Sequence record: MZ170040.1
Origin: Escherichia phage vB_EcoM_FJ1
DNA length: 64,000 nucleotides
Reading direction: 5' to 3' (one strand)
Shown: piece by piece, positions 51,809 to 61,217 of the stretch
How positions within the stretch are numbered: the first letter of the stretch is position 1
Layout of the letters: the number at the start of each line of letters is the position of its first letter
The notes under the pieces: model-generated
Database searches by the model: none
Told to the model about the DNA's origin: nothing
Seen by the model: only the letters and a program-made list of their open reading frames with translations
Made by a program: the position numbers and the translations under genes

Positions 51809-53374
51809 ATGACTATCAAAACTAAAGCTGAACTTTTGAACAAATGGAAGCCATTACTGGAAGGTGAAGGTTTACCGGAAATTGCTAATAGCAAACAAGC
51901 GATTATCGCTAAAATCTTTGAAAACCAGGAAAAAGATTTCCAGACAGCTCCAGAGTACAAAGACGAAAAAATCGCTCAGGCGTTCGGTTCTTTCTTAACA
52001 GAAGCTGAAATCGGTGGTGACCACGGTTACAATGCTACCAACATCGCTGCAGGTCAGACTTCTGGCGCAGTAACCCAGATTGGCCCGGCTGTTATGGGTA
52101 TGGTACGTCGTGCTATTCCTAACCTGATTGCTTTCGATATTTGCGGTGTTCAGCCGATGAACAGCCCGACTGGTCAGGTATTCGCACTGCGCGCAGTATA
52201 TGGTAAAGACCCAATCGCTTCCGGCGCTAAAGAAGCATTCCACCCAATGTATGGTCCAGATGCAATGTTCTCTGGTCAGGGTGCTGCTAAGAAATTCGCT
52301 GCTTTGAAAGCAAATGATACTCTTGAAGTCGGAACTATTTACACTCACTTCTTCCAGGAAACTGGTACAGTATATCTGCAAGCTACAGAAGCTAAACAAA
52401 TTGATTCTACTGCATCTGACGCAGCTAAATTAGATGCTGAAATTAAGAAACAAATGGAAGCTGGTGTACTGGTAGAAATCGCTGAAGGTATGGCTACTTC
52501 TATCGCTGAACTCCAGGAAGGTTTCAATGGCTCTACCGATAACCCATGGAATGAAATGGGCTTCCGTATCGATAAACAAGTTATCGAAGCTAAATCTCGT
52601 CAGCTGAAAGCTGCTTACTCTATTGAATTAGCACAAGACCTCCGCGCTGTTCACGGTATGGATGCTGATGCTGAACTGTCTGGTATTCTGGCTACAGAAA
52701 TTATGCTGGAAATCAACCGTGAAGTTGTTGATTGGATTAACTACTCCGCACAGGTTGGTAAATCTGGTATGACCCTGACTCCGGGTTCTAAAGCTGGTGT
52801 ATTTGACTTCCAGGACCCAATCGATATTCGTGGTGCTCGCTGGGCAGGTGAATCCTTTAAAGCTTTGTTGTTCCAGATTGACAAAGAAGCAGTTGAAATT
52901 GCTCGTCAGACCGGTCGTGGTGAAGGTAACTTCATTATCGCTTCCCGTAACGTAGTTAACGTTCTGGCTTCAGTTGATACCGGCATTTCTTATGCTGCAC
53001 AAGGTCTGGCTACCGGCTTTAACACTGATACTACCAAGTCAGTATTTGCTGGTGTTCTGGGTGGTAAATACCGCGTATATATCGACCAGTATGCTAAACA
53101 GGATTATTTCACTGTAGGTTATAAAGGTCCTAACGAAATGGATGCTGGTATTTACTATGCTCCATATGTAGCTCTGACTCCGCTGCGTGGTTCCGATCCG
53201 AAGAACTTCCAACCGGTAATGGGATTCAAAACTCGTTACGGTATCGGTATCAACCCATTTGCAGAATCCGCTGCTCAGGCTCCGGCTTCTCGCATCCAGA
53301 GCGGTATGCCTTCTATTCTGAATAGCCTTGGTAAAAACGCTTACTTCCGCCGTGTATATGTTAAAGGTATCTAA
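51809..53374 (+). CDS. 23: major capsid protein
   Basis: 521 aa (same as T4 gp23); highly biased codon usage; terminator after stop. Confidence 0.97.
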   Translation: MTIKTKAELLNKWKPLLEGEGLPEIANSKQAIIAKIFENQEKDFQTAPEYKDEKIAQAFGSFLTEAEIGGDHGYNATNIAAGQTSGAVTQIGPAVMGMVRRAIPNLIAFDICGVQPMNSPTGQVFALRAVYGKDPIASGAKEAFHPMYGPDAMFSGQGAAKKFAALKANDTLEVGTIYTHFFQETGTVYLQATEAKQIDSTASDAAKLDAEIKKQMEAGVLVEIAEGMATSIAELQEGFNGSTDNPWNEMGFRIDKQVIEAKSRQLKAAYSIELAQDLRAVHGMDADAELSGILATEIMLEINREVVDWINYSAQVGKSGMTLTPGSKAGVFDFQDPIDIRGARWAGESFKALLFQIDKEAVEIARQTGRGEGNFIIASRNVVNVLASVDTGISYAAQGLATGFNTDTTKSVFAGVLGGKYRVYIDQYAKQDYFTVGYKGPNEMDAGIYYAPYVALTPLRGSDPKNFQPVMGFKTRYGIGINPFAESAAQAPASRIQSGMPSILNSLGKNAYFRRVYVKGI

Positions 53375-53388
53375 TCTTTGACGATTTA

Positions 53389-53420
53389 AGGGACCTTCGG
53401 GTCCCTTTAGTTGTTTTTAT
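53389..53420 (+). terminator. rho-independent terminator after gene 23
   Basis: Hairpin GGGACC-TTCG-GGTCCC followed by T-rich tract. Confidence 0.7.
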
Positions 53421-53422
53421 GG

Positions 53423-53430
53423 TATAAATA
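53423..53430 (+). promoter_or_regulatory. T4 late promoter box for gene 24
   Basis: TATAAATA ~27 nt upstream of ATG, after the gene 23 terminator. Confidence 0.65.
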
Positions 53431-53457
53431 AATCATATAAACCAAAAGGAAAGCGCA

Positions 53458-54741
53458 ATGGCTAAAATCAACGAACTTCTGCGCGAATCAACCACAACGA
53501 ATAGCAACTCAATCGGTCGCCCAAATCTCGTTGCTTTGACTCGCGCTACCACTAAATTAATATATTCTGACATTGTAGCAACGCAAAGAACTAATCAACC
53601 TGTTGCTGCTTTTTATGGTATCAAATACCTTAACCCAGATAACGAATTTACATTTAAAACTGGTGCTACTTATGCTGGCGAAGCTGGATATGTAGACCGA
53701 GAACAAATCACAGAATTAACAGAAGAGTCTAAATTAACTCTCAATAAAGGCGATTTATTCAAATATAATAATATCGTTTATAAAGTATTAGAAGATACAC
53801 CATTTGCTGATATTGAAGAAAGTGATTTAGAATTAGCTCTTCAGATTGCAATTGTTCTTTTAAAGGTTCGTCTATTTTCTGATGCTGCAGTAACAAGCAA
53901 ATTTGAAAGCTCTGATAGTGAAATTGCGGATGCTAGATTCCAGATTAATAAATGGCAAACCGCAGTTAAATCTCGTAAACTTAAAACTGGCATTACAGTT
54001 GAATTAGCACAAGATTTAGAAGCAAATGGATTCGATGCTCCTAATTTCTTGGAAGATTTGCTTGCAACCGAAATGGCAGATGAAATCAATAAAGATATTC
54101 TGCAGTCTTTGATTACAGTATCAAAACGTTATAAAGTTACAGGAATTACTGATACTGGATTCATTGATTTGAGTTATGCATCTGCACCTGAAGCGGGTCG
54201 TTCATTATATCGAATGGTATGTGAAATGGTTTCACATATCCAAAAAGAATCAACTTATACAGCAACGTTCTGTGTTGCTTCAGCTCGTGCTGCTGCGATT
54301 CTTGCTGCATCAGGTTGGTTAAAACATAAACCAGAAGATGATAAATATCTTTCACAAAATGCCTACGGGTTCTTAGCTAACGGTTTACCGCTTTATTGCG
54401 ATACTAACAGCCCATTAGATTATGTAATCGTTGGTGTAGTAGAAAATATCGGTGAAAAAGAAATTGTTGGATCAATTTTCTATGCTCCGTATACAGAAGG
54501 TCTCGACTTAGATGACCCTGAACATGTAGGTGCATTTAAAGTTGTTGTTGACCCAGAAAGTTTGCAGCCATCTATCGGTTTATTAGTTAGATATGCTTTA
54601 TCAGCAAATCCTTACACCGTAGCAAAAGATGAAAAAGAAGCAAGAGTAATTGATGGTGGAGACATGGATAAAATGGCGGGTCGTTCAGATTTGTCTGTTT
54701 TATTAGGTGTTAAGCTACCAAAAATTATCATTGATGAATAA
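53458..54741 (+). CDS. 24: capsid vertex protein
   Basis: 427 aa (same as T4 gp24); follows gene 23 directly with no segD in between. Confidence 0.95.
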   Translation: MAKINELLRESTTTNSNSIGRPNLVALTRATTKLIYSDIVATQRTNQPVAAFYGIKYLNPDNEFTFKTGATYAGEAGYVDREQITELTEESKLTLNKGDLFKYNNIVYKVLEDTPFADIEESDLELALQIAIVLLKVRLFSDAAVTSKFESSDSEIADARFQINKWQTAVKSRKLKTGITVELAQDLEANGFDAPNFLEDLLATEMADEINKDILQSLITVSKRYKVTGITDTGFIDLSYASAPEAGRSLYRMVCEMVSHIQKESTYTATFCVASARAAAILAASGWLKHKPEDDKYLSQNAYGFLANGLPLYCDTNSPLDYVIVGVVENIGEKEIVGSIFYAPYTEGLDLDDPEHVGAFKVVVDPESLQPSIGLLVRYALSANPYTVAKDEKEARVIDGGDMDKMAGRSDLSVLLGVKLPKIIIDE

Positions 54742-54770: not shown

Positions 54771-55775
54771 TTAACTTACCAATTCAATCCAAGCCGGACG
54801 AAGTACATCTTGTACCATTTTAACTAATTCCTTTTTAATCAAAGAAGGATTATCCGCTTGAGTTAGAGTAATACCTTCACGAGAAGTTTCTTCCAAAATA
54901 TCTTGAACAGTTAGTCCCATCACCTTTCCAAAATCTTTTGGACCAATTTCGCCAATTTTAGAAATAACGTTATTTACTCGGTTTAGTGTAACGTAACAAG
55001 CTAAAATCCCCACCAATTTGTTATCAGCTTCTGACAGTTCAACTTTAGCTTTAATAGGCTTATCAGACTTTTTCTTTTCACTAAATTTAGAATTCTTGCA
55101 TTTGATGGCTACACGATTGCGATTAGGCAGCCAAGAAGGATAACAAGGTTTCAATACATATCCTTCAGCGGTAAATACTTCGTCTTTGGCTTCAGCTTTC
55201 CAAACACATTTGTTAGCGTCAATTAAACCTGCATTATCTACGGTAAAATTATAAGACGGAACAACAGAATCCAAATCATTTGGCAATTTAATAAGCTCTT
55301 CAAATTTACCGCGACCTAAAAGTGGAGCCATTTTAAATTTAAATGTATTGCAGAATGATTCCATCATATAATCGTCGACATAAGTCACATCACCACTTTC
55401 TGTAGTGACAATAATGTCAAATACATAAAAATCTTTATCACCATAATCAACATTCTTCTGAATGCCAGGTCCAGCGAATTCGCCAAAGACTTGATAAGAC
55501 ACAACCGCTGAGGTTTCCATAATATCTTGTACTGCTTTAATGGAATCAGCGTAATTCTTTAGAATAATTTCATACCCAAAGAAATCTTCAGCAGGAAGAA
55601 TAGGACCAGTACGTTTAGCGCAAGTTACTTTATCGCGCTCAATAATCAACGAGAAATTTGTACCATGAATCTTTTCACGAGCTACCCATTCGCCGCCAGT
55701 CAATCCCAAGCTATAAAGTTTTTCAATAAATTTAGAGTTGTAATGATTTTCAAGACTGCTATACTTTTTAAACAT
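54771..55775 (-). CDS. rnlB: RNA ligase 2
   Basis: 334 aa; nucleotidyl-lysine motif KIHGTN; same length as T4 Rnl2. Confidence 0.9.
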
Positions 55776-55784
55776 AATTAATCC

Positions 55785-56063
55785 TCAAAATGTAATTTCT
55801 AACCAATCACCATCACGCTGATCACTATTAACTTTAAAGATGAATCCTTCTTTTCTCAGCCAATCACCAATTTCTTCAGTAATCAATTTATCGCGAGCAG
55901 TACAATAATAACTAAAATATGTTTTACCTTGTTCAGCTGCTTTATTAGCAAGTTCCGAAAAATCTTTAATAAAACACTCTAGCTTAAACTGTTTACTTTT
56001 GAATGCTTTTTCGCGTAATTGATTAGCAAAAGATTCATTTTCATAAAGATCATACTGTTCCAT
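55785..56063 (-). CDS. hypothetical protein (24.2 position)
   Basis: 92 aa ORF between rnlB and hoc. Confidence 0.5.
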   Translation of the reverse strand: MEQYDLYENESFANQLREKAFKSKQFKLECFIKDFSELANKAAEQGKTYFSYYCTARDKLITEEIGDWLRKEGFIFKVNSDQRDGDWLEITF

Positions 56064-56265
56064 TTTTCACCTTTTTATTGATATGTCTTTTTCTATAGAC
56101 AACTTTTTCTCGAGTTTCAAATTTATTCTTAGCAGTCATAGCTCGAGCCCATAATACAGCCACCTCTTTTGCCTGTAAGTTCAATTCACGAGCAATTTCA
56201 ATGAATGACTTTCCAGACTCATGGAGAGTAAACACCACAACCTCAGTTCTCATAATCAATCTCAT
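56050..56265 (-). CDS. hypothetical small basic protein (24.3 position)
   Basis: 71 aa ORF, overlaps downstream gene start. Confidence 0.5.
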   Translation of the reverse strand: MRLIMRTEVVVFTLHESGKSFIEIARELNLQAKEVAVLWARAMTAKNKFETREKVVYRKRHINKKVKNGTV

Positions 56266-56319: not shown

Positions 56320-56349
56320 TTCAAAATGAAGAAAGGGGCCGAAGCCCCT
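56320..56349 (-). terminator. putative terminator after hoc
   Basis: Hairpin GGGGCC-GAA-GCCCC with U-rich tail on minus strand. Confidence 0.45.
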
Positions 56350-56354
56350 TATGA

Positions 56355-58349
56355 TTATGGATAGGTATAGATGATACCAGTTTCTAAAGCAGTTTTATGA
56401 ATGATGTATCCATTACGCGATTCTTGGACATCAACTTCTGGATAGTCTTTCATCATCTTCTGAAGAGTGTAACGATGCAGGTAGTATTTACTATCTGGAT
56501 CGTCAGTTTTCCAATCTTTACCTTCTTCGGTCATTTTTTGGATTTCATCCATAACCCACCAACCGCACCAGATGTAAGCTGAAGTGCGATGTGGAAGAGG
56601 ATGAACATAAGGCAATTCACCTTCTGGTTCTGGAGCAACTTTATCAGTTACCTGAACTTGACCTTCTGCTGTGATAGTTTTGCTATCATAATCAGTAGCA
56701 GTAACAGTTGCAGTAACTTCAATAGTTTGACTTCCAATAGATGATGTATCAACAGTGTATACATTAGTTGACCCTTCTACTGGAGAAGAATCTTTCTTCC
56801 ATGAATATTCGATTTGTGCTTCTTCTGGAGCATCCGTAACATTAGCAGTAAATGTAGCCGAAGCATCTTGCTGAACGTTAATAGAAGGAGGAGTCAATGT
56901 AACCCGTGGATTCATTGTTTTCTTATTAACAGTCAATGATACTTCATTAGAAGTAACTTCCTTTTCATTGTAATTTTCTGCAGTTACTTGCGCTACACAC
57001 TTAACTGTTTTAGCTCCAACTGTGGTAGGAGTATAGTTAAATGTAGTAGTAGTTTCTCCATCGACCAGAGAACCGTCAACATACCACTGATACGTAGCAG
57101 ACGCTCCTGGTGGCTGTGAAGCCAAGGCAGCAGTAAATTGAACTGGGGTTCCAATTACTGCTGCAGCAGGATTAGCAGGAGTTACGGCTAACGTAGTTGT
57201 CTGTGTTTTCTTATTAACTGTTAATGATACTTCATTAGAAGTAACTGTTTTTGCGTCATAATCTGTTGCTGTTACTTGCGCTACACATTTAATTCTTTTT
57301 ACTCCACTTGTAGTTGGAGTATAGCTAAATGTAGCAGAAGTCGCTTCACCAATTTGAGAATCATCTACATACCACTGATACGTAGCAGATGCCCCATCAG
57401 GTTGAGAAGCTAAGGCAGCAGTAAATTCAACGGCTGTTCCAATTACTCCTGCTGGAGGACTATCAGGAGTTACAGATAGGGTAGTCGTTTGTGTTTTCTT
57501 GTTAACAGTCAAAGATACTTCATTCGAAGTAACTTCCTTTTCATTGTAATTTTCAGCAGTTACTTGGGCTACGCATTTAATTCTTTTAACCCCACTTGTA
57601 GTTGGAGTGTAATTGAACGTAGCATTAGTTTCTCCACCAACTTGTGAATCATCTACATACCACTGATACGTAGCAGATGCTCCTAGCGGCTGCGAAGCTA
57701 AGGCAGCAGTAAATTGAACTGGGGTTCCAATTACTCCTGCTGGAGGACTATCAGGAGTTACTGCCAAAGTAGTCGTCTGCGTCTTTTTATTAACAGTCAG
57801 TGATACTTCATTAGAAGTAACGCTTAGTGTATCATAATCTGCCGCAGTTACTTGAGCTACACACTTGATTTTTTTAACTCCGCTTGTGTCAGGAGTGTAA
57901 TTGAATGTAGCGTCAGTTGCTTCGTCTACAGGAGAACCGTCAACGTGCCATTGATACGTAGCGTTTGCACCTGATGGCTGTGAAGCTAAGGCAGCGGTAA
58001 ATTGAACTGGGGTTCCAATCACTCCAGCATCAGGGCTACCAGGAGTTACTGCCAACGTAGTTGACTGAGTTTTATTTTGAACTGTGATAGTTGTACTAAT
58101 TTCAGCTGTTTCAGGTTCAGATTCTGCAACTTGATTGGTTGCAACTACTTTAATAGTCTTTTGACCGGCAGGTCCTTTTAGTACATAACTAAAAGTTGCT
58201 GACGTTTCTTCCTGTGGAGCGTCGTCTACAGTCCAAGCATATGTAATAGGTCCATCTCCAGTTTGACCACTGGGTGTAGCAGTAAACTGCTGAGTCTGAT
58301 CTATAACTCCAGTAGGTGTTTTAGGAGTTATATCAACTGTAAAAGTCAT
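56355..58349 (-). CDS. hoc: Hoc (highly immunogenic outer capsid protein), expanded to ~6 Ig-like domains
   Basis: 664 aa; six ~95-aa Ig-like units, four near-identical; C-terminal capsid-binding-like domain; hoc position between rnlB side and inh. Confidence 0.85.
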   Translation of the reverse strand: MTFTVDITPKTPTGVIDQTQQFTATPSGQTGDGPITYAWTVDDAPQEETSATFSYVLKGPAGQKTIKVVATNQVAESEPETAEISTTITVQNKTQSTTLAVTPGSPDAGVIGTPVQFTAALASQPSGANATYQWHVDGSPVDEATDATFNYTPDTSGVKKIKCVAQVTAADYDTLSVTSNEVSLTVNKKTQTTTLAVTPDSPPAGVIGTPVQFTAALASQPLGASATYQWYVDDSQVGGETNATFNYTPTTSGVKRIKCVAQVTAENYNEKEVTSNEVSLTVNKKTQTTTLSVTPDSPPAGVIGTAVEFTAALASQPDGASATYQWYVDDSQIGEATSATFSYTPTTSGVKRIKCVAQVTATDYDAKTVTSNEVSLTVNKKTQTTTLAVTPANPAAAVIGTPVQFTAALASQPPGASATYQWYVDGSLVDGETTTTFNYTPTTVGAKTVKCVAQVTAENYNEKEVTSNEVSLTVNKKTMNPRVTLTPPSINVQQDASATFTANVTDAPEEAQIEYSWKKDSSPVEGSTNVYTVDTSSIGSQTIEVTATVTATDYDSKTITAEGQVQVTDKVAPEPEGELPYVHPLPHRTSAYIWCGWWVMDEIQKMTEEGKDWKTDDPDSKYYLHRYTLQKMMKDYPEVDVQESRNGYIIHKTALETGIIYTYP
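56936..58076 (-). repeat. ~285-bp coding tandem repeats (4 copies) inside hoc
   Basis: DNA-level near-identical units (e.g. ...gatacttcattagaagtaac...gttacttg(c/a)gctacaca(c/t)tt...) each encoding one Ig-like domain. Confidence 0.8.
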
Positions 58350-58358
58350 AAGTTATCC

Positions 58359-59039
58359 TTATTTTAATGTTACGAAAGAAGAATTGCGTGTTTCACGAAT
58401 TAAAACTGATCCGTCACGGTTAATGTAATAAATTAAGCTAAATAAAGTTTGGTGTGCTGACGCATGCTCAAAACTAGTTGGGTGAGATTTCCAATCCGGA
58501 GTTTCAGCAATCCATTGATAAATCCACCAAGGAACAGTGCAGAATCCTGGATTTTTTCCAATCAACTGAAGATTAGGACTAAAGTTTTCCGGAAGAGTAA
58601 ATACAGACGGCTTTTCAGATTCAATAATCTCAGCTACAGCCTGTTCAAACTTTTCTTCAACAAAGGGAGTATCTTCAATCAAAACTGAAGTATTTTCAGG
58701 AATTTTATCCGTTTCTACTACTTCAATTTTAATGTCAGATTTAACCGGAGAATCAATCAGAAGTGCTGCTTCTGGATTGACTTCTTCATCGTCATATTTT
58801 AACCCCTCTGCAGCATCAGCAGCATCAATTAAGTCTTTAATAGATAACCCATCAGTCTCTGGCATAGGTTCACTAGCAAGCTTCTGGAGGGCTTCTTCAA
58901 TATCAACAACGATATTATCAAAAGATTTATTCTTTTTGACCTTTATACCAAACTGTTCAGCATATTCAGCTAATTTAGCTTTAGCTTCTTTATTATCATC
59001 AAGAGCCTTCAGCTCTGCAATATAATCTTTATCTATCAT
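58359..59039 (-). CDS. inh: Inh-like protein (inhibitor of prohead protease gp21)
   Basis: 226 aa acidic protein adjacent to hoc, as T4 inh. Confidence 0.65.
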   Translation of the reverse strand: MIDKDYIAELKALDDNKEAKAKLAEYAEQFGIKVKKNKSFDNIVVDIEEALQKLASEPMPETDGLSIKDLIDAADAAEGLKYDDEEVNPEAALLIDSPVKSDIKIEVVETDKIPENTSVLIEDTPFVEEKFEQAVAEIIESEKPSVFTLPENFSPNLQLIGKNPGFCTVPWWIYQWIAETPDWKSHPTSFEHASAHQTLFSLIYYINRDGSVLIRETRNSSFVTLK

Positions 59040-59088: not shown

Positions 59089-59706
59089 ATGTACCACTTT
59101 GTATATGAAACAACAAATCTAATAAATGGTAAAAAGTATATAGGAAAGCACTCTACTGATGACTTGAATGATGGTTACCTTGGTTCCGGTAAGGCAATTC
59201 AGCAGGCTATAAAGAAATATGGTGAAAACAATTTCTCTAGAACAATACTAAAAGAGTTTAAAACTTCCGAAGAAGCGTACATGTATGAAGAAAAAATTAT
59301 AACTCCTGAACTAATAAAAAGCAAAAATTACTATAATATGAAACCTGGTGGAATTGGTGGAATTGTTATGACTACAGATGTTATAGCAAAGATGAAAGAA
59401 TCTTCCGCTAAAAGATTTGAAAACTCACCGGGCACGGTATTAGGTAAAACTTGTTATACTAATGGAACTAAAAATATTTTTATTAAACCTGGAGAACTTG
59501 TTCCAGAAGGATTTGTAAAAGGGATGGTTCATCCTAATAGAAAGTCCAGAAAAGGATGTAAAGTCAAACCGACTACCACAGGAACTTTTTGGGTCAATAA
59601 TGGCGCAATAAATAAATTAATACAACCAGACGGTATTATTCCCGACGGATTTATTAAAGGTCGTCTCATGAAAAGAGATTCTAAAGGCAAATTTAGTAAG
59701 GCATAA
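59089..59706 (+). CDS. segE: GIY-YIG homing endonuclease (SegE-like)
   Basis: 205 aa; MYHFVYETTNLINGKKYIGKHS...GYLGSG; between inh and uvsW like T4 segE; TATAAATA upstream. Confidence 0.75.
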   Translation: MYHFVYETTNLINGKKYIGKHSTDDLNDGYLGSGKAIQQAIKKYGENNFSRTILKEFKTSEEAYMYEEKIITPELIKSKNYYNMKPGGIGGIVMTTDVIAKMKESSAKRFENSPGTVLGKTCYTNGTKNIFIKPGELVPEGFVKGMVHPNRKSRKGCKVKPTTTGTFWVNNGAINKLIQPDGIIPDGFIKGRLMKRDSKGKFSKA

Positions 59707-59708
59707 TT

Positions 59709-61217
59709 ATGGATATTAAAGTACATTTTCACGACTTCAGTCATGTACGCATCGATTGTGAAGAGAGCACGTTCCACGAATTAAGAGATTTCTTTTCGTT
59801 TGAGGCCGATGGATATAGATTTAATCCTCGCTTCAGATATGGCAACTGGGATGGACGAATCCGTCTTTTAGATTATAATCGTCTTCTTCCATTTGGCTTA
59901 GTCGGGCAAATTAAAAAGTTCTGTGATAACTTTGGCTATAAAGCCTGGATTGACCCGCAAATTAACGAAAAAGAAGAATTATCAAGAAAAGATTTTGATG
60001 AATGGCTTTCTAAATTAGAAATCTATTCAGGAAATAAAAGAATTGAACCGCACTGGTATCAAAAAGATGCAGTGTTCGAAGGATTAGTTAATCGTCGTAG
60101 AATTCTTAATCTTCCAACATCCGCTGGTAAATCTTTAATTCAAGCTTTGCTTGCGCGATATTATTTGGAAAATTATGAAGGTAAAATTCTTATCATTGTT
60201 CCAACAACTGCTCTGACAACTCAGATGGCTGATGACTTCGTCGACTATCGTTTATTCAGTCATGCAATGATAAAGAAAATTGGCGGCGGAGCATCAAAAG
60301 ATGATAAATATAAAAATGATGCACCAGTCGTTGTTGGTACATGGCAAACTGTAGTAAAACAACCGAAAGAATGGTTCTCACAGTTTGGAATGATGATGAA
60401 TGATGAATGCCATCTTGCTACAGGAAAAAGTATTTCATCTATCATATCAGGTTTAAATAACTGTATGTTTAAATTTGGTTTGTCTGGTTCATTACGTGAC
60501 GGCAAAGCCAATATCATGCAGTATGTTGGAATGTTTGGTGAAATATTTAAGCCAGTAACGACCTCTAAATTAATGGAAGATGGACAAGTAACTGAGTTAA
60601 AAATTAATAGTATTTTTCTTCGCTATCCCGATGAGTTCACTACTAAATTAAAGGGAAAAACTTATCAAGAAGAAATAAAAATTATTACTGGGCTTAGTAA
60701 AAGAAATAAATGGATCGCTAAATTAGCTATTAAGCTTGCACAAAAAGATGAAAACGCTTTTGTCATGTTTAAACATGTATCGCATGGTAAAGCTATTTTC
60801 GATTTAATTAAAAATGAATACGATAAAGTTTATTACGTATCAGGGGAAGTTGATACCGAAACCCGCAATATAATGAAAACCTTAGCTGAAAATGGTAAAG
60901 GAATAATTATAGTAGCGAGTTATGGTGTATTTTCTACTGGTATTTCAGTTAAAAATCTGCATCATGTTGTTTTAGCGCACGGCGTTAAATCAAAAATCAT
61001 TGTATTACAAACAATCGGTCGTGTATTACGTAAGCATGGTTCTAAGACAATAGCAACTGTCTGGGACCTCATAGATGATTGTGGCGTTAAGCCAAAATCT
61101 GCTAATACGAAAAAGAAATATGTTCATTTGAACTATCTTTTAAAACACGGCATTGATCGTATTCAGCGCTACGCAGATGAAAAATTTAATTACGTAATGA
61201 AAACAGTTAATTTATAA
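59709..61217 (+). CDS. uvsW: UvsW helicase (SF2)
   Basis: 502 aa; Walker A PTSAGKS, DExH-like MMNDECH. Confidence 0.9.
   Translation: MDIKVHFHDFSHVRIDCEESTFHELRDFFSFEADGYRFNPRFRYGNWDGRIRLLDYNRLLPFGLVGQIKKFCDNFGYKAWIDPQINEKEELSRKDFDEWLSKLEIYSGNKRIEPHWYQKDAVFEGLVNRRRILNLPTSAGKSLIQALLARYYLENYEGKILIIVPTTALTTQMADDFVDYRLFSHAMIKKIGGGASKDDKYKNDAPVVVGTWQTVVKQPKEWFSQFGMMMNDECHLATGKSISSIISGLNNCMFKFGLSGSLRDGKANIMQYVGMFGEIFKPVTTSKLMEDGQVTELKINSIFLRYPDEFTTKLKGKTYQEEIKIITGLSKRNKWIAKLAIKLAQKDENAFVMFKHVSHGKAIFDLIKNEYDKVYYVSGEVDTETRNIMKTLAENGKGIIIVASYGVFSTGISVKNLHHVVLAHGVKSKIIVLQTIGRVLRKHGSKTIATVWDLIDDCGVKPKSANTKKKYVHLNYLLKHGIDRIQRYADEKFNYVMKTVNL

Follow-up and report, generated by a model that had tools for sequence, protein, structure and literature searches.

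The hoc gene of Escherichia phage vB_EcoM_FJ1 encodes a protein of 664 amino acids, compared to 376 in T4, which raises the question of how the additional length arose. The initial annotation, made from the DNA alone, proposed a recent tandem amplification of one immunoglobulin (Ig)-like domain and warned of a possible assembly error. Analysis of the window, the 64,000-nucleotide stretch of vB_EcoM_FJ1 DNA in record MZ170040.1, indicated instead that the repeats are real, old, and part of a copy-number series that is already present in related phages.

Identification of hoc and its flanking signals

The gene is a single intact open reading frame on the minus strand (positions 56355 to 58349; 664 amino acids plus the stop codon; 70.9 kDa). 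Both the length and the name given in the initial annotation were confirmed, the latter by Pfam matches, by PHROG 1149 ("Hoc-like head decoration"; E value, 1.5e-173), by the T4 Hoc chains 5vf3 and 8t1x as the PDB matches in a phmmer search (E value, 6.6e-207), and by synteny with T4. The gene order gp23, gp24, rnlB, 24.2, 24.3, hoc, inh, segE, uvsW is that of T4, with hoc, its strand unchanged, located between inh and 24.3 in the head-gene region. An acidic pI of about 4 to 5 is typical of Hoc proteins (PMC10385173), and the calculated values were 4.52 for the window Hoc versus 4.74 for T4 Hoc. In GenBank the identical vB_EcoM_FJ1 protein, QYW00228.1, is labelled "hypothetical protein", and Hoc is not mentioned in the paper describing this phage.

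A Shine-Dalgarno-like AAGGA (58356 to 58360, minus strand), read from the sequence, is located 6 nucleotides upstream of the hoc ATG and overlaps the stop codon of inh (58359 to 58361). Beginning 5 nucleotides past the hoc stop codon is an intrinsic-terminator-like hairpin, AAGGGGC-TTCG-GCCCCTT with a T-rich tail (56323 to 56350, minus strand). The annotation of Yersinia phage fPS-90 places a "terminator" at the corresponding site. No exact minus-strand match to the T4 late promoter TATAAATA was found just upstream of hoc or inh, and a scan for sigma-70 promoters gave fewer sites than expected by chance.

Domain layout of the 664-amino-acid protein

All domains are encoded on the minus strand. 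Ig-like domain 1 (amino acids 1 to 93; 58071 to 58349) is equivalent to T4 Hoc residues 1 to 93 and forms a beta-sandwich in the AlphaFold2 model. It is followed by four PKD/Ig-like units of the T4 domain-2 type, designated A (amino acids 94 to 189; 57783 to 58070), B (190 to 285; 57495 to 57782), C (286 to 381; 57207 to 57494), and D (382 to 477; 56919 to 57206). Unit A has Pfam matches to PKD and BiPBP_C, and units B, C, and D are 99.0%, 97.2%, and 100% identical in nucleotide sequence to units 2, 3, and 4 of phage slur03. The third-type Ig-like domain (amino acids 478 to 573; 56631 to 56918) corresponds to T4 Hoc domain 3, aligning from T4 residue 190 on; Pfam Ig_3 and I-set match amino acids 481 to 565, where AlphaFold2 also predicts a beta-sandwich. 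The capsid-binding domain at the C terminus (amino acids 574 to 664; 56358 to 56630) is near-identical to T4 Hoc residues from about 280 to 376, with 97.1% nucleotide identity. The phmmer alignment paired residues 465 to 664 with residues 177 to 376 of the T4 chain almost without substitutions, and PHROG 21694 covers residues 600 to 664 (E value, 1.4e-41).

Six beta-sandwich domains were predicted by AlphaFold2, with pLDDT blocks mostly of 84 to 94 up to amino acid 570. Matches in the Ig-like string were to PKD (E value, 4.7e-19; four stretches), PKD_3, PKD_4, Ig_2, Ig_3, and I-set, and the top Foldseek matches were multi-Ig ectodomains such as CEA, LILRB3, MDGA1, Dscam, and Sidekick. Because model confidence was low in the C-terminal domain (pLDDT below 50 at amino acids 573 to 599 and 635 to 664), the assignment there relied on sequence identity with the T4 domain of known structure. 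For T4, it is this domain whose structure was determined on the gp23* hexamer (PDB 8t1x and 8t9r; PMC10385173). Hoc of T4-like phages occupies the centre of each gp23* hexamer in the mature capsid as one copy and is dispensable for infectivity, and the near-identity of the anchor suggests that the window Hoc would also bind there. The model and the alignment with T4 Hoc thus agree with the earlier description of six Ig-like domains followed by a capsid-binding C-terminal domain.

T4 Hoc (NP_049793; PDB 5vf3, 8t1x, and 8t9r) has its locus, gene order, and acidity in common with the window protein. Domains 1 and 3 and the C-terminal domain are collinear in the two proteins, and the C-terminal protein sequence is near-identical. 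However, T4 Hoc has one domain-2 cassette and three Ig-like domains, whereas the window Hoc has four cassettes and six Ig-like domains. The T4 protein is shorter with fewer Ig domains, as the initial annotation stated, and the window gene is longer because the domain-2-type Ig-like domain is present four times. It is highly probable (about 0.88) that the gene is a genuine, intact hoc (highly immunogenic outer capsid protein) gene of a Tequatrovirus, with four in-frame 96-amino-acid cassettes of the domain-2 type, A-B-C-D, between domains 1 and 3 and the conserved C-terminal anchor next.

Divergence and age of the repeat units

Tandem Repeats Finder detected 4.0 copies with a period of 288 bp at 56916 to 58073 (score, 1321), and a second repeat search also returned four copies at 288-bp spacing. 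Self-comparison of the protein gave 258 matches at a lag of 96 amino acids compared to roughly 31 to 74 at neighbouring lags, which is far beyond chance. The array is in codon register, with four 96-amino-acid units at amino acids 94 to 477 (56919 to 58070). Across the four units 65 of the 96 columns are invariant, and the segment EVSLTVNKK is unchanged throughout. Pairwise identity ranged from 74.0 to 84.7% for DNA and from 72.9 to 85.4% for protein, with unit A 74 to 79% identical to the other three in nucleotide sequence. The longest exact run common to any two units was 38 nucleotides, a length reached by B and C at unit offset 21 to 58. Variation is higher in the loops (entropy, 0.60 versus 0.26 bits; Mann-Whitney P = 0.02), although loop enrichment of variable positions is modest on the four window units alone (Fisher P = 0.08). 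Thus, the earlier observation of a long hoc with a four-unit tandem array holds, but the units are not near-identical in protein or DNA, and the period is 288 bp rather than about 285 bp.

The repeats might have resulted from recent amplification, in place and in this phage lineage, of a single Ig-like domain into near-identical copies. The perfect register of the array (no insertions or deletions over the 288-bp period) and the conserved framework residues are consistent with such an event, as is the 97% identity of units B and D over a segment near their 3' ends in a sliding-window comparison, which could also be a local gene-conversion tract. However, the units have diverged from each other far more than the phage has from its relatives: the genes flanking hoc are 94 to 97% identical to those of T4, and many phages match a 24-kb block at about 97% identity. 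Each unit is also more similar to its same-position orthologue in slur03 (94 to 100% nucleotide identity) than to the other units in the window; the corresponding values for Sfk20 are 86 to 96%. The presence of orthologous A, B, C, and D at matching positions in both phages indicates that the array is older than the split of these phages. Furthermore, dS between units was 0.56 to 1.43 and dN/dS was 0.10 to 0.29, as expected of old duplicates under purifying selection and not of a recent expansion. Recent amplification was rejected on the divergence between units and dS, and appears very improbable. The cassettes are old paralogues with synonymous sites near saturation, each under purifying selection.

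Tandem repeats are also a classic cause of assembly error, and the vB_EcoM_FJ1 genome was built from short reads only, so that a shorter hoc might have been inflated by mis-assembly of repeat-containing reads. Yet no exact run between units exceeds 38 nucleotides, the genome was read at 2x300 bp and such reads are longer than a whole unit, the open reading frame is intact, and separate assemblies of the slur03, slur08, and slur14 phages and of Sfk20 arrived independently at this order of four units. The short exact runs, the read length, and the independent genomes with a matching array led us to reject an artefact, which is hardly credible. Accordingly, the earlier interpretation can be retained as far as it describes a hoc lengthened by domain-2 repeats that serve as a recombination substrate, but not in its proposals of recent expansion or assembly error.

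Copy number of domain-2 cassettes in Tequatrovirus hoc

Tequatrovirus hoc genes form a copy-number series of one to four cassettes plus a shorter form, with lengths of about 845, 1131 (T4), 1419 (ime09), 1707 (ESh16 and A6-6), and 1995 bp. Among public alleles, one and two cassettes are common, three are uncommon, and four are rare. A sample of 60 spread across the 656 matching phage records contained spans of 1131 to 1132 bp (n = 28), about 1419 bp (n = 21), about 845 bp (n = 4), and 1995 bp (n = 1). The best 120 protein cluster representatives included 80 of 376 to 379 amino acids, 30 of 468 to 472, 9 of 567 to 570, and one of 439. Over both samples, about a third of the hoc genes had two or more units. 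No allele with more than four cassettes appeared in the 40 best megablast records, which spanned at most 1995 bp, or in these 120 representatives, the longest of which has 570 amino acids. This search covered the best-ranked matches, and cluster members were inspected for the window protein's own cluster; the 664-amino-acid relatives are grouped in a 90% cluster under a 570-amino-acid representative and hence are missing from the representative list.

The four-unit order A-B-C-D was also present in three other hoc versions, those of Escherichia phages slur03/slur08/slur14, which have one Hoc protein in common (CUL01697.1 and YP_009180679.1), and of Shigella phage Sfk20 (QPP47207.1). These proteins are 664 amino acids long, like the window Hoc, and carry the RefSeq label "Hoc-like head decoration". 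Over the full 1995 bp, the window hoc is 96.8% identical to that of slur03 and 91.7% identical to that of Sfk20. Of the three known four-cassette versions, the slur one came from cattle slurry, the FJ1 one from a phage used against porcine enterotoxigenic E. coli (ETEC), and the Sfk20 one from the water of a lake in an area with a shigellosis outbreak. The possibility, named in the initial annotation, that homologs routinely have the same domain count was borne out in part: four-unit alleles exist elsewhere but are rare, whereas the multi-unit class is routine.

Over 24 kb, the phages that match the window best have two units (ESh31, slur04, and ECO78) or one unit (ESh18 and Kha5h); hoc copy number is uncoupled from the genome backbone. 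The window has segE at the hoc locus, whereas slur03, Sfk20, and ime09 do not.

Longer Hoc proteins are known from other phages. That of Serratia phage Muldoon has 1174 amino acids and 10 Ig-like domains, and that of Klebsiella phage PMBT63 has one extra domain (PMC10385173, PMC13435897). Like the window Hoc, both combine a conserved C-terminal anchor with a variable-number string of Ig-like domains, but they are distant proteins from other genera, whereas the window gene belongs to an allelic series of one to four cassettes carried by genomes with about 97% identity. The Hoc of phage PNJ-9, another natural variant in domain number, has three domains and lacks domain 3; the window allele has instead gained three domain-2 copies.

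Recombination and the direction of change

The cassette architectures observed were AB, CB, AT, CT, AD, AC, BD, CD, ABD, ACD, ABC, ABT, and ABCD, in which T is a T4-like unit. The initial annotation regarded the locus as prone to length variation by recombination, and the public alleles with one, two, three, or four units and a chimeric unit in the three-unit allele of ESh16 bear this out. Unit 2 of ESh16 matches window unit B at 20 of 21 nucleotides and then enters the 38-nucleotide tract that is identical in B and C, past which it matches C at 227 of 229 nucleotides versus 185 of 229 for B. The crossover therefore lies within the longest identity tract of B and C, the footprint of unequal homologous recombination.

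The window hoc is itself recombinant: domain 1 follows ime09 and ESh16 (98.9% nucleotide identity to both) and is only 86.0% identical to that of slur03, which indicates a mosaic breakpoint. The sequence from unit B to the C terminus is of the slur03 type. Unit D is the last unit in ime09 (96.9% identity) and in ESh16 (99.0%). The cassettes themselves are mosaic, and the lone cassette of T4 is a mosaic of segments matching different window cassettes. Copy number would change when short identical tracts in neighbouring cassettes undergo unequal homologous recombination, probably in the course of the T4 replication cycle, which is highly recombinogenic, and in mixed infections.

Only for the ESh16 allele can the direction of change be read, and there it is a deletion: a single crossover between B and C that removes exactly 288 bp from ABCD explains its three units. 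It is possible, at somewhat below even odds, that among multi-cassette Tequatrovirus hoc genes the four-cassette array came first and the common two- and three-cassette alleles are deletion derivatives, in which case the locus is shrinking, not growing; the alternative is stepwise growth that ends at four cassettes. The ime09 allele, A plus D, is ABCD minus 576 bp, and the order A-B-C-D is retained in most two- and three-unit architectures (AB, AC, AD, BD, CD, ABC, ABD, and ACD). However, CB and the alleles that end in a T4-like unit (AT, CT, and ABT) are not simple subsets of ABCD, the mosaic single unit of T4 is not explained by simple deletion from it, and unequal crossing-over produces reciprocal duplications as well as deletions. 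A further proposal, which we consider unlikely, is that the domain-2 array is a fast-shuffling contingency locus, in which recombination, both unequal and between phages, at short tracts of identity keeps producing fibres of one to four cassettes with varied loops, and in which the number and combination of cassettes are under selection from a niche in the animal gut or on mucosa. If so, fibre length would tune how long the phage stays in mucus, how visible it is to the immune system, or how its particles disperse.

Implications for the Hoc fibre

At roughly 4 to 4.5 nm per added Ig domain, the assumption made here, the fibre on the virion is predicted to be about 30 nm long compared to 18 nm in T4. 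Such a fibre would present the domain-2 surface four times, NEVSLT segment included, which should alter reach, mucin-glycan avidity, antigenicity, and capsid surface charge. In the Hoc of PNJ-9, S183/L184/T185 in domain 2 have been reported as the MUC2-binding site (PMC11853027). These three residues are conserved in every window cassette, as is the NEVSLT segment, the reported MUC2/fucose-binding site of that protein, in all four. By this indirect argument, the cassettes are candidates for adhesion to mucin glycans such as fucosylated MUC2, in the manner of mucus-adherence (BAM) adhesins. The residues of the PNJ-9 "binding site" belong to the domain's final beta-strand, and mutations there may simply unfold the domain.

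The biology is incremental, as the allele is in databases and variation in the number of Hoc Ig domains has been published. The four-cassette hoc is the longest form known for Tequatrovirus, yet it had already been sequenced in other phages. In the literature searched, there were general statements on domain number but no explicit description of the one-to-four-cassette ladder in Tequatrovirus, and slur03, slur14, Sfk20, and FJ1 do not appear in the very short supplementary text available for Fokine et al. 2023.

Hoc serves as the model phage protein for mucus adherence and is widely used as a platform for display. Fibres with one, two, three, or four copies of one Ig-like domain, occurring naturally in phages that are otherwise about 97% identical, form a ready experimental ladder, which could be used to test how mucin binding, persistence in the gut, immunogenicity, and the dispersion of particles depend on fibre length and valency. 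The carrier of this exact Hoc, vB_EcoM_FJ1, is under development against porcine ETEC.

A 664-residue Hoc with four cassettes of one kind

The single intact open reading frame (ORF) at 56355-58349 (minus strand) encodes a 664-aa protein that matched both PHROG 1149, "Hoc-like head decoration" (E = 1.5e-173), and the T4 Hoc chains in the PDB (5vf3, 8t1x, and 8t9r; E = 6.6e-207), with the Pfam domains PKD, PKD_3, PKD_4, Ig_2, Ig_3, and I-set. Its gene neighborhood is that of the T4 head-gene region: gp23 (51809-53374, plus), gp24 (53458-54741, plus), rnlB (54771-55775, minus), 24.2, 24.3, hoc, the adjoining inh (58359-59039, minus), a GIY-YIG homing endonuclease gene matching T4 segE (59089-59706, plus), and uvsW (59709-61217, plus). 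The gap between gp23 and gp24 is only 83 bp (53375-53457), and segD, the homing endonuclease gene at 562-1233 of the T4 locus, is absent there. The 24.3 homologue (56050-56265, minus) is a 71-aa ORF of 216 bp, the length it also has in Sfk20 and ESh16; 24.3 is annotated as 56 aa in T4 and 67 aa in slur03 and ime09, a difference that probably reflects start-codon choice only. A ribosome-binding site (AAGGA) 6 nt upstream of the hoc ATG overlaps the inh stop codon, and a GC-rich hairpin with a UUCG loop and a T-rich tail begins 5 nt 3' of the hoc stop codon, which suggests that hoc is the final cistron of an inh-hoc unit.

The ORF product is identical, residue for residue, to GenBank QYW00228.1 of vB_EcoM_FJ1, a therapeutic candidate against porcine ETEC (PMC10035155). 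QYW00228.1 was deposited as "hypothetical protein," an annotation that could be corrected; the 664-aa proteins of slur03 and slur14 are already "Hoc-like head decoration" in RefSeq. The FJ1 paper makes no mention of Hoc or Ig-like domains.

Tandem Repeats Finder detected 4.0 copies of a 288-bp period at 56916-58073 (score 1321, 79% matches), and a repeat search found four copies at exact 288-bp spacing with 78 to 85% identity to the reference copy. Self-matches of the protein numbered 258 at a lag of 96 aa versus roughly 31 to 74 at neighboring lags. In codon register on the minus strand, the protein consists of D1, equivalent to T4 Hoc domain 1 (aa 1-93, 58071-58349); cassettes A (aa 94-189, 57783-58070), B (aa 190-285, 57495-57782), C (aa 286-381, 57207-57494), and D (aa 382-477, 56919-57206), all of the T4 Hoc domain 2 type; D3, equivalent to T4 domain 3 (aa 478-573, 56631-56918); and a C-terminal domain (aa 574-664, 56358-56630). 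An AlphaFold2 model built with a 39-sequence alignment contained six beta-sandwich domains; most pLDDT blocks up to about aa 570 lay at 84 to 94, and the best Foldseek matches of the model in the PDB were multi-Ig ectodomains. Confidence was low for the C-terminal domain, which needs no model because its alignment to the T4 Hoc capsid-binding domain is almost substitution-free. Thus, the initial annotation of the gene as a hoc with a multiplied domain, comprising six Ig-like units, four of them of one kind, and a capsid-binding domain, was borne out by homology, synteny, repeat structure, and model.

The cassettes are old paralogues

The four central units had also been described as near-identical products of recent expansion, and both parts of that description are wrong. 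Pairwise identity among the four cassettes was 74.0 to 84.7% for DNA and 72.9 to 85.4% for protein, with 65 of 96 residues common to all. Nei-Gojobori estimates between cassettes were 0.56 to 1.43 for dS, 0.07 to 0.17 for dN, and 0.10 to 0.29 for dN/dS. The genes flanking hoc are 94 to 97% identical to those of T4 (inh, 96.6%; rnlB, 93.9%; gp24, 97.0%), and many Tequatrovirus genomes match a 24-kb block of the window at about 97% identity. Positional orthologues of A, B, C, and D were 94.4, 99.0, 97.2, and 100% identical (nucleotide) in slur03 and 85.8, 91.7, 88.2, and 95.5% in Sfk20. The cassettes are old paralogues, and purifying selection has maintained every one of them. Because the orthologues are positional, the A-B-C-D array is older than the divergence of these phages.

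Tandem repeats can raise concern about assembly error, as the initial annotation did, but an artefact is very unlikely here. The longest exact run between any two cassettes is 38 nt; single reads cover a whole cassette, since MZ170040.1 was derived from 2x300-bp MiSeq reads (PMC10035155); the A-B-C-D order was assembled independently in slur03/slur08/slur14 and Sfk20; and the reading frame is intact.

Cassette number varies among related phages

When the window hoc was compared by megablast with 50,697 phage records, 656 had a match, and the matches listed fell on a ladder of spans: 1131 bp for T4 and many other phages, about 1419 bp for phages such as ime09 and HP3, 1707 bp for ESh16, ESh34, and A6-6, and 1995 bp for slur03/08/14 and Sfk20. 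In 60 evenly spaced records from the 656, 28 spans were 1131 to 1132 bp, 21 about 1419 bp, 1 was 1995 bp, and 4 about 845 bp; the remainder were either disrupted genes or matches confined to the C terminus in phages of other genera. Of the top 120 protein cluster representatives, 80 were 376 to 379 aa long, 30 were 468 to 472 aa, 9 were 567 to 570 aa, and 1 was 439 aa; the 664-aa proteins belong to a cluster whose representative is 570 aa long. No Hoc of this type longer than 664 aa was found among the megablast matches and protein clusters listed. Four cassettes are therefore the longest and rarest class seen among these matches, with three distinct 664-aa sequences listed (FJ1, slur03/slur08/slur14, and Sfk20); hoc genes with more than one cassette are common in general.

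Spans of about 842 to 852 bp in EP01, AV111, Jbel, and F2 are one 288-bp step below T4, which suggests alleles with an Ig-like domain missing, a state already reported for PNJ-9. Many public two-cassette genes span 1418 (four records) or 1420 bp (two records) rather than 1419, and the BYEP02 match (two records) spans 1496 bp. Off-length two-cassette genes are annotated as two coding sequences ("Hoc part 1 / part 2," "capsid and scaffold protein x2"); because Hoc is dispensable, these apparent frameshifts could be either sequencing errors or real pseudogenes. In MG010123.1, a 32-kb record labeled "Staphylococcus phage SAJK-IND," there is a T4-type hoc 90% identical to that of the window; the record is probably mislabeled or contaminated.

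Probable shuffling of cassettes by recombination

Each cassette from the 120 representatives and 5 loci was assigned to the nearest window cassette. Multi-cassette architectures were AB, CB, AT, CT, AD, AC, BD, CD, ABD, ACD, ABC, ABT, and ABCD (T, T4-like), and lone cassettes of every type were also found. The single T4 cassette is a patchwork whose segments best match different window cassettes. The ESh16 hoc is exactly 288 bp shorter than the window hoc. Its second cassette starts as B (20/21 nt), passes through the 38-nt tract that is the longest run common to window B and C, and continues as C (227/229 nt versus 185/229 for B). An unequal homologous crossover between B and C would be expected to produce just such a gene, which is the clearest mechanistic evidence. 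The ime09 gene is A plus D, i.e., the array minus 576 bp.

The phages nearest to the window across 24 kb carry either two cassettes (ESh31, slur04, and ECO78) or one (ESh18 and Kha5h), indicating that cassette number is uncoupled from genomic backbone. The window hoc is itself recombinant: its D1 shares 98.9% identity with ime09 and ESh16 versus only 86.0% with slur03, whereas cassette B through the C terminus is 97 to 100% identical to slur03. The adjoining segE is 99.7% identical to T4 segE (nucleotide) versus 94 to 97% in neighboring genes. It is present at the inh/uvsW site in T4 and ESh16; in slur03, Sfk20, ime09, and A6-6, which lack it, uvsW directly follows inh. This pattern suggests a homing element that moved recently, and homing co-conversion could help carry hoc alleles between phages.

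Potential functional significance

T4 Hoc is a fiber of about 180 Å in which a C-terminal anchor, bound at the center of gp23* hexamers, carries three Ig-like domains (PMC10385173). With three extra Ig domains, the fiber would be roughly 30 nm long. In 138 distinct cassettes, predicted loops varied more than strands (0.60 versus 0.26 bits; Mann-Whitney P = 0.02); the loop trend was weaker in the four window cassettes alone (Fisher P = 0.08). One study reported S183/L184/T185 of PNJ-9 Hoc domain 2 as a MUC2/fucose-binding site (PMC11853027). The equivalent residues lie in the NEVSLT segment at the cassette end, which is invariant in all four cassettes, so the fiber may present the reported site four times. 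The published PNJ-9 mutants may simply have misfolded, because these residues are in the last beta-strand. The window Hoc is acidic (pI 4.52 versus 4.74 for T4 Hoc), consistent with the dispersal role proposed for Hoc (PMC10385173).

Hoc variability is well documented. Fokine et al. (2023) described about 650 homologues with Ig-like strings of varying number, up to 10 domains in Serratia phage Muldoon, and noted that Hoc differs greatly even between phages closely related to T4 (PMC10385173). A 2026 paper reported that domain number and organization vary widely, with an extra Ig-like domain in PMBT63 (PMC13435897), and PNJ-9 Hoc lacks domain 3 (PMC11853027). No explicit description of a one-to-four cassette ladder within Tequatrovirus, or of its unequal-crossover footprints, was found in the papers searched. 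These are a descriptive refinement rather than a new kind of thing, of interest mainly because they offer a natural series of lengths and valencies with which to test what Hoc does.
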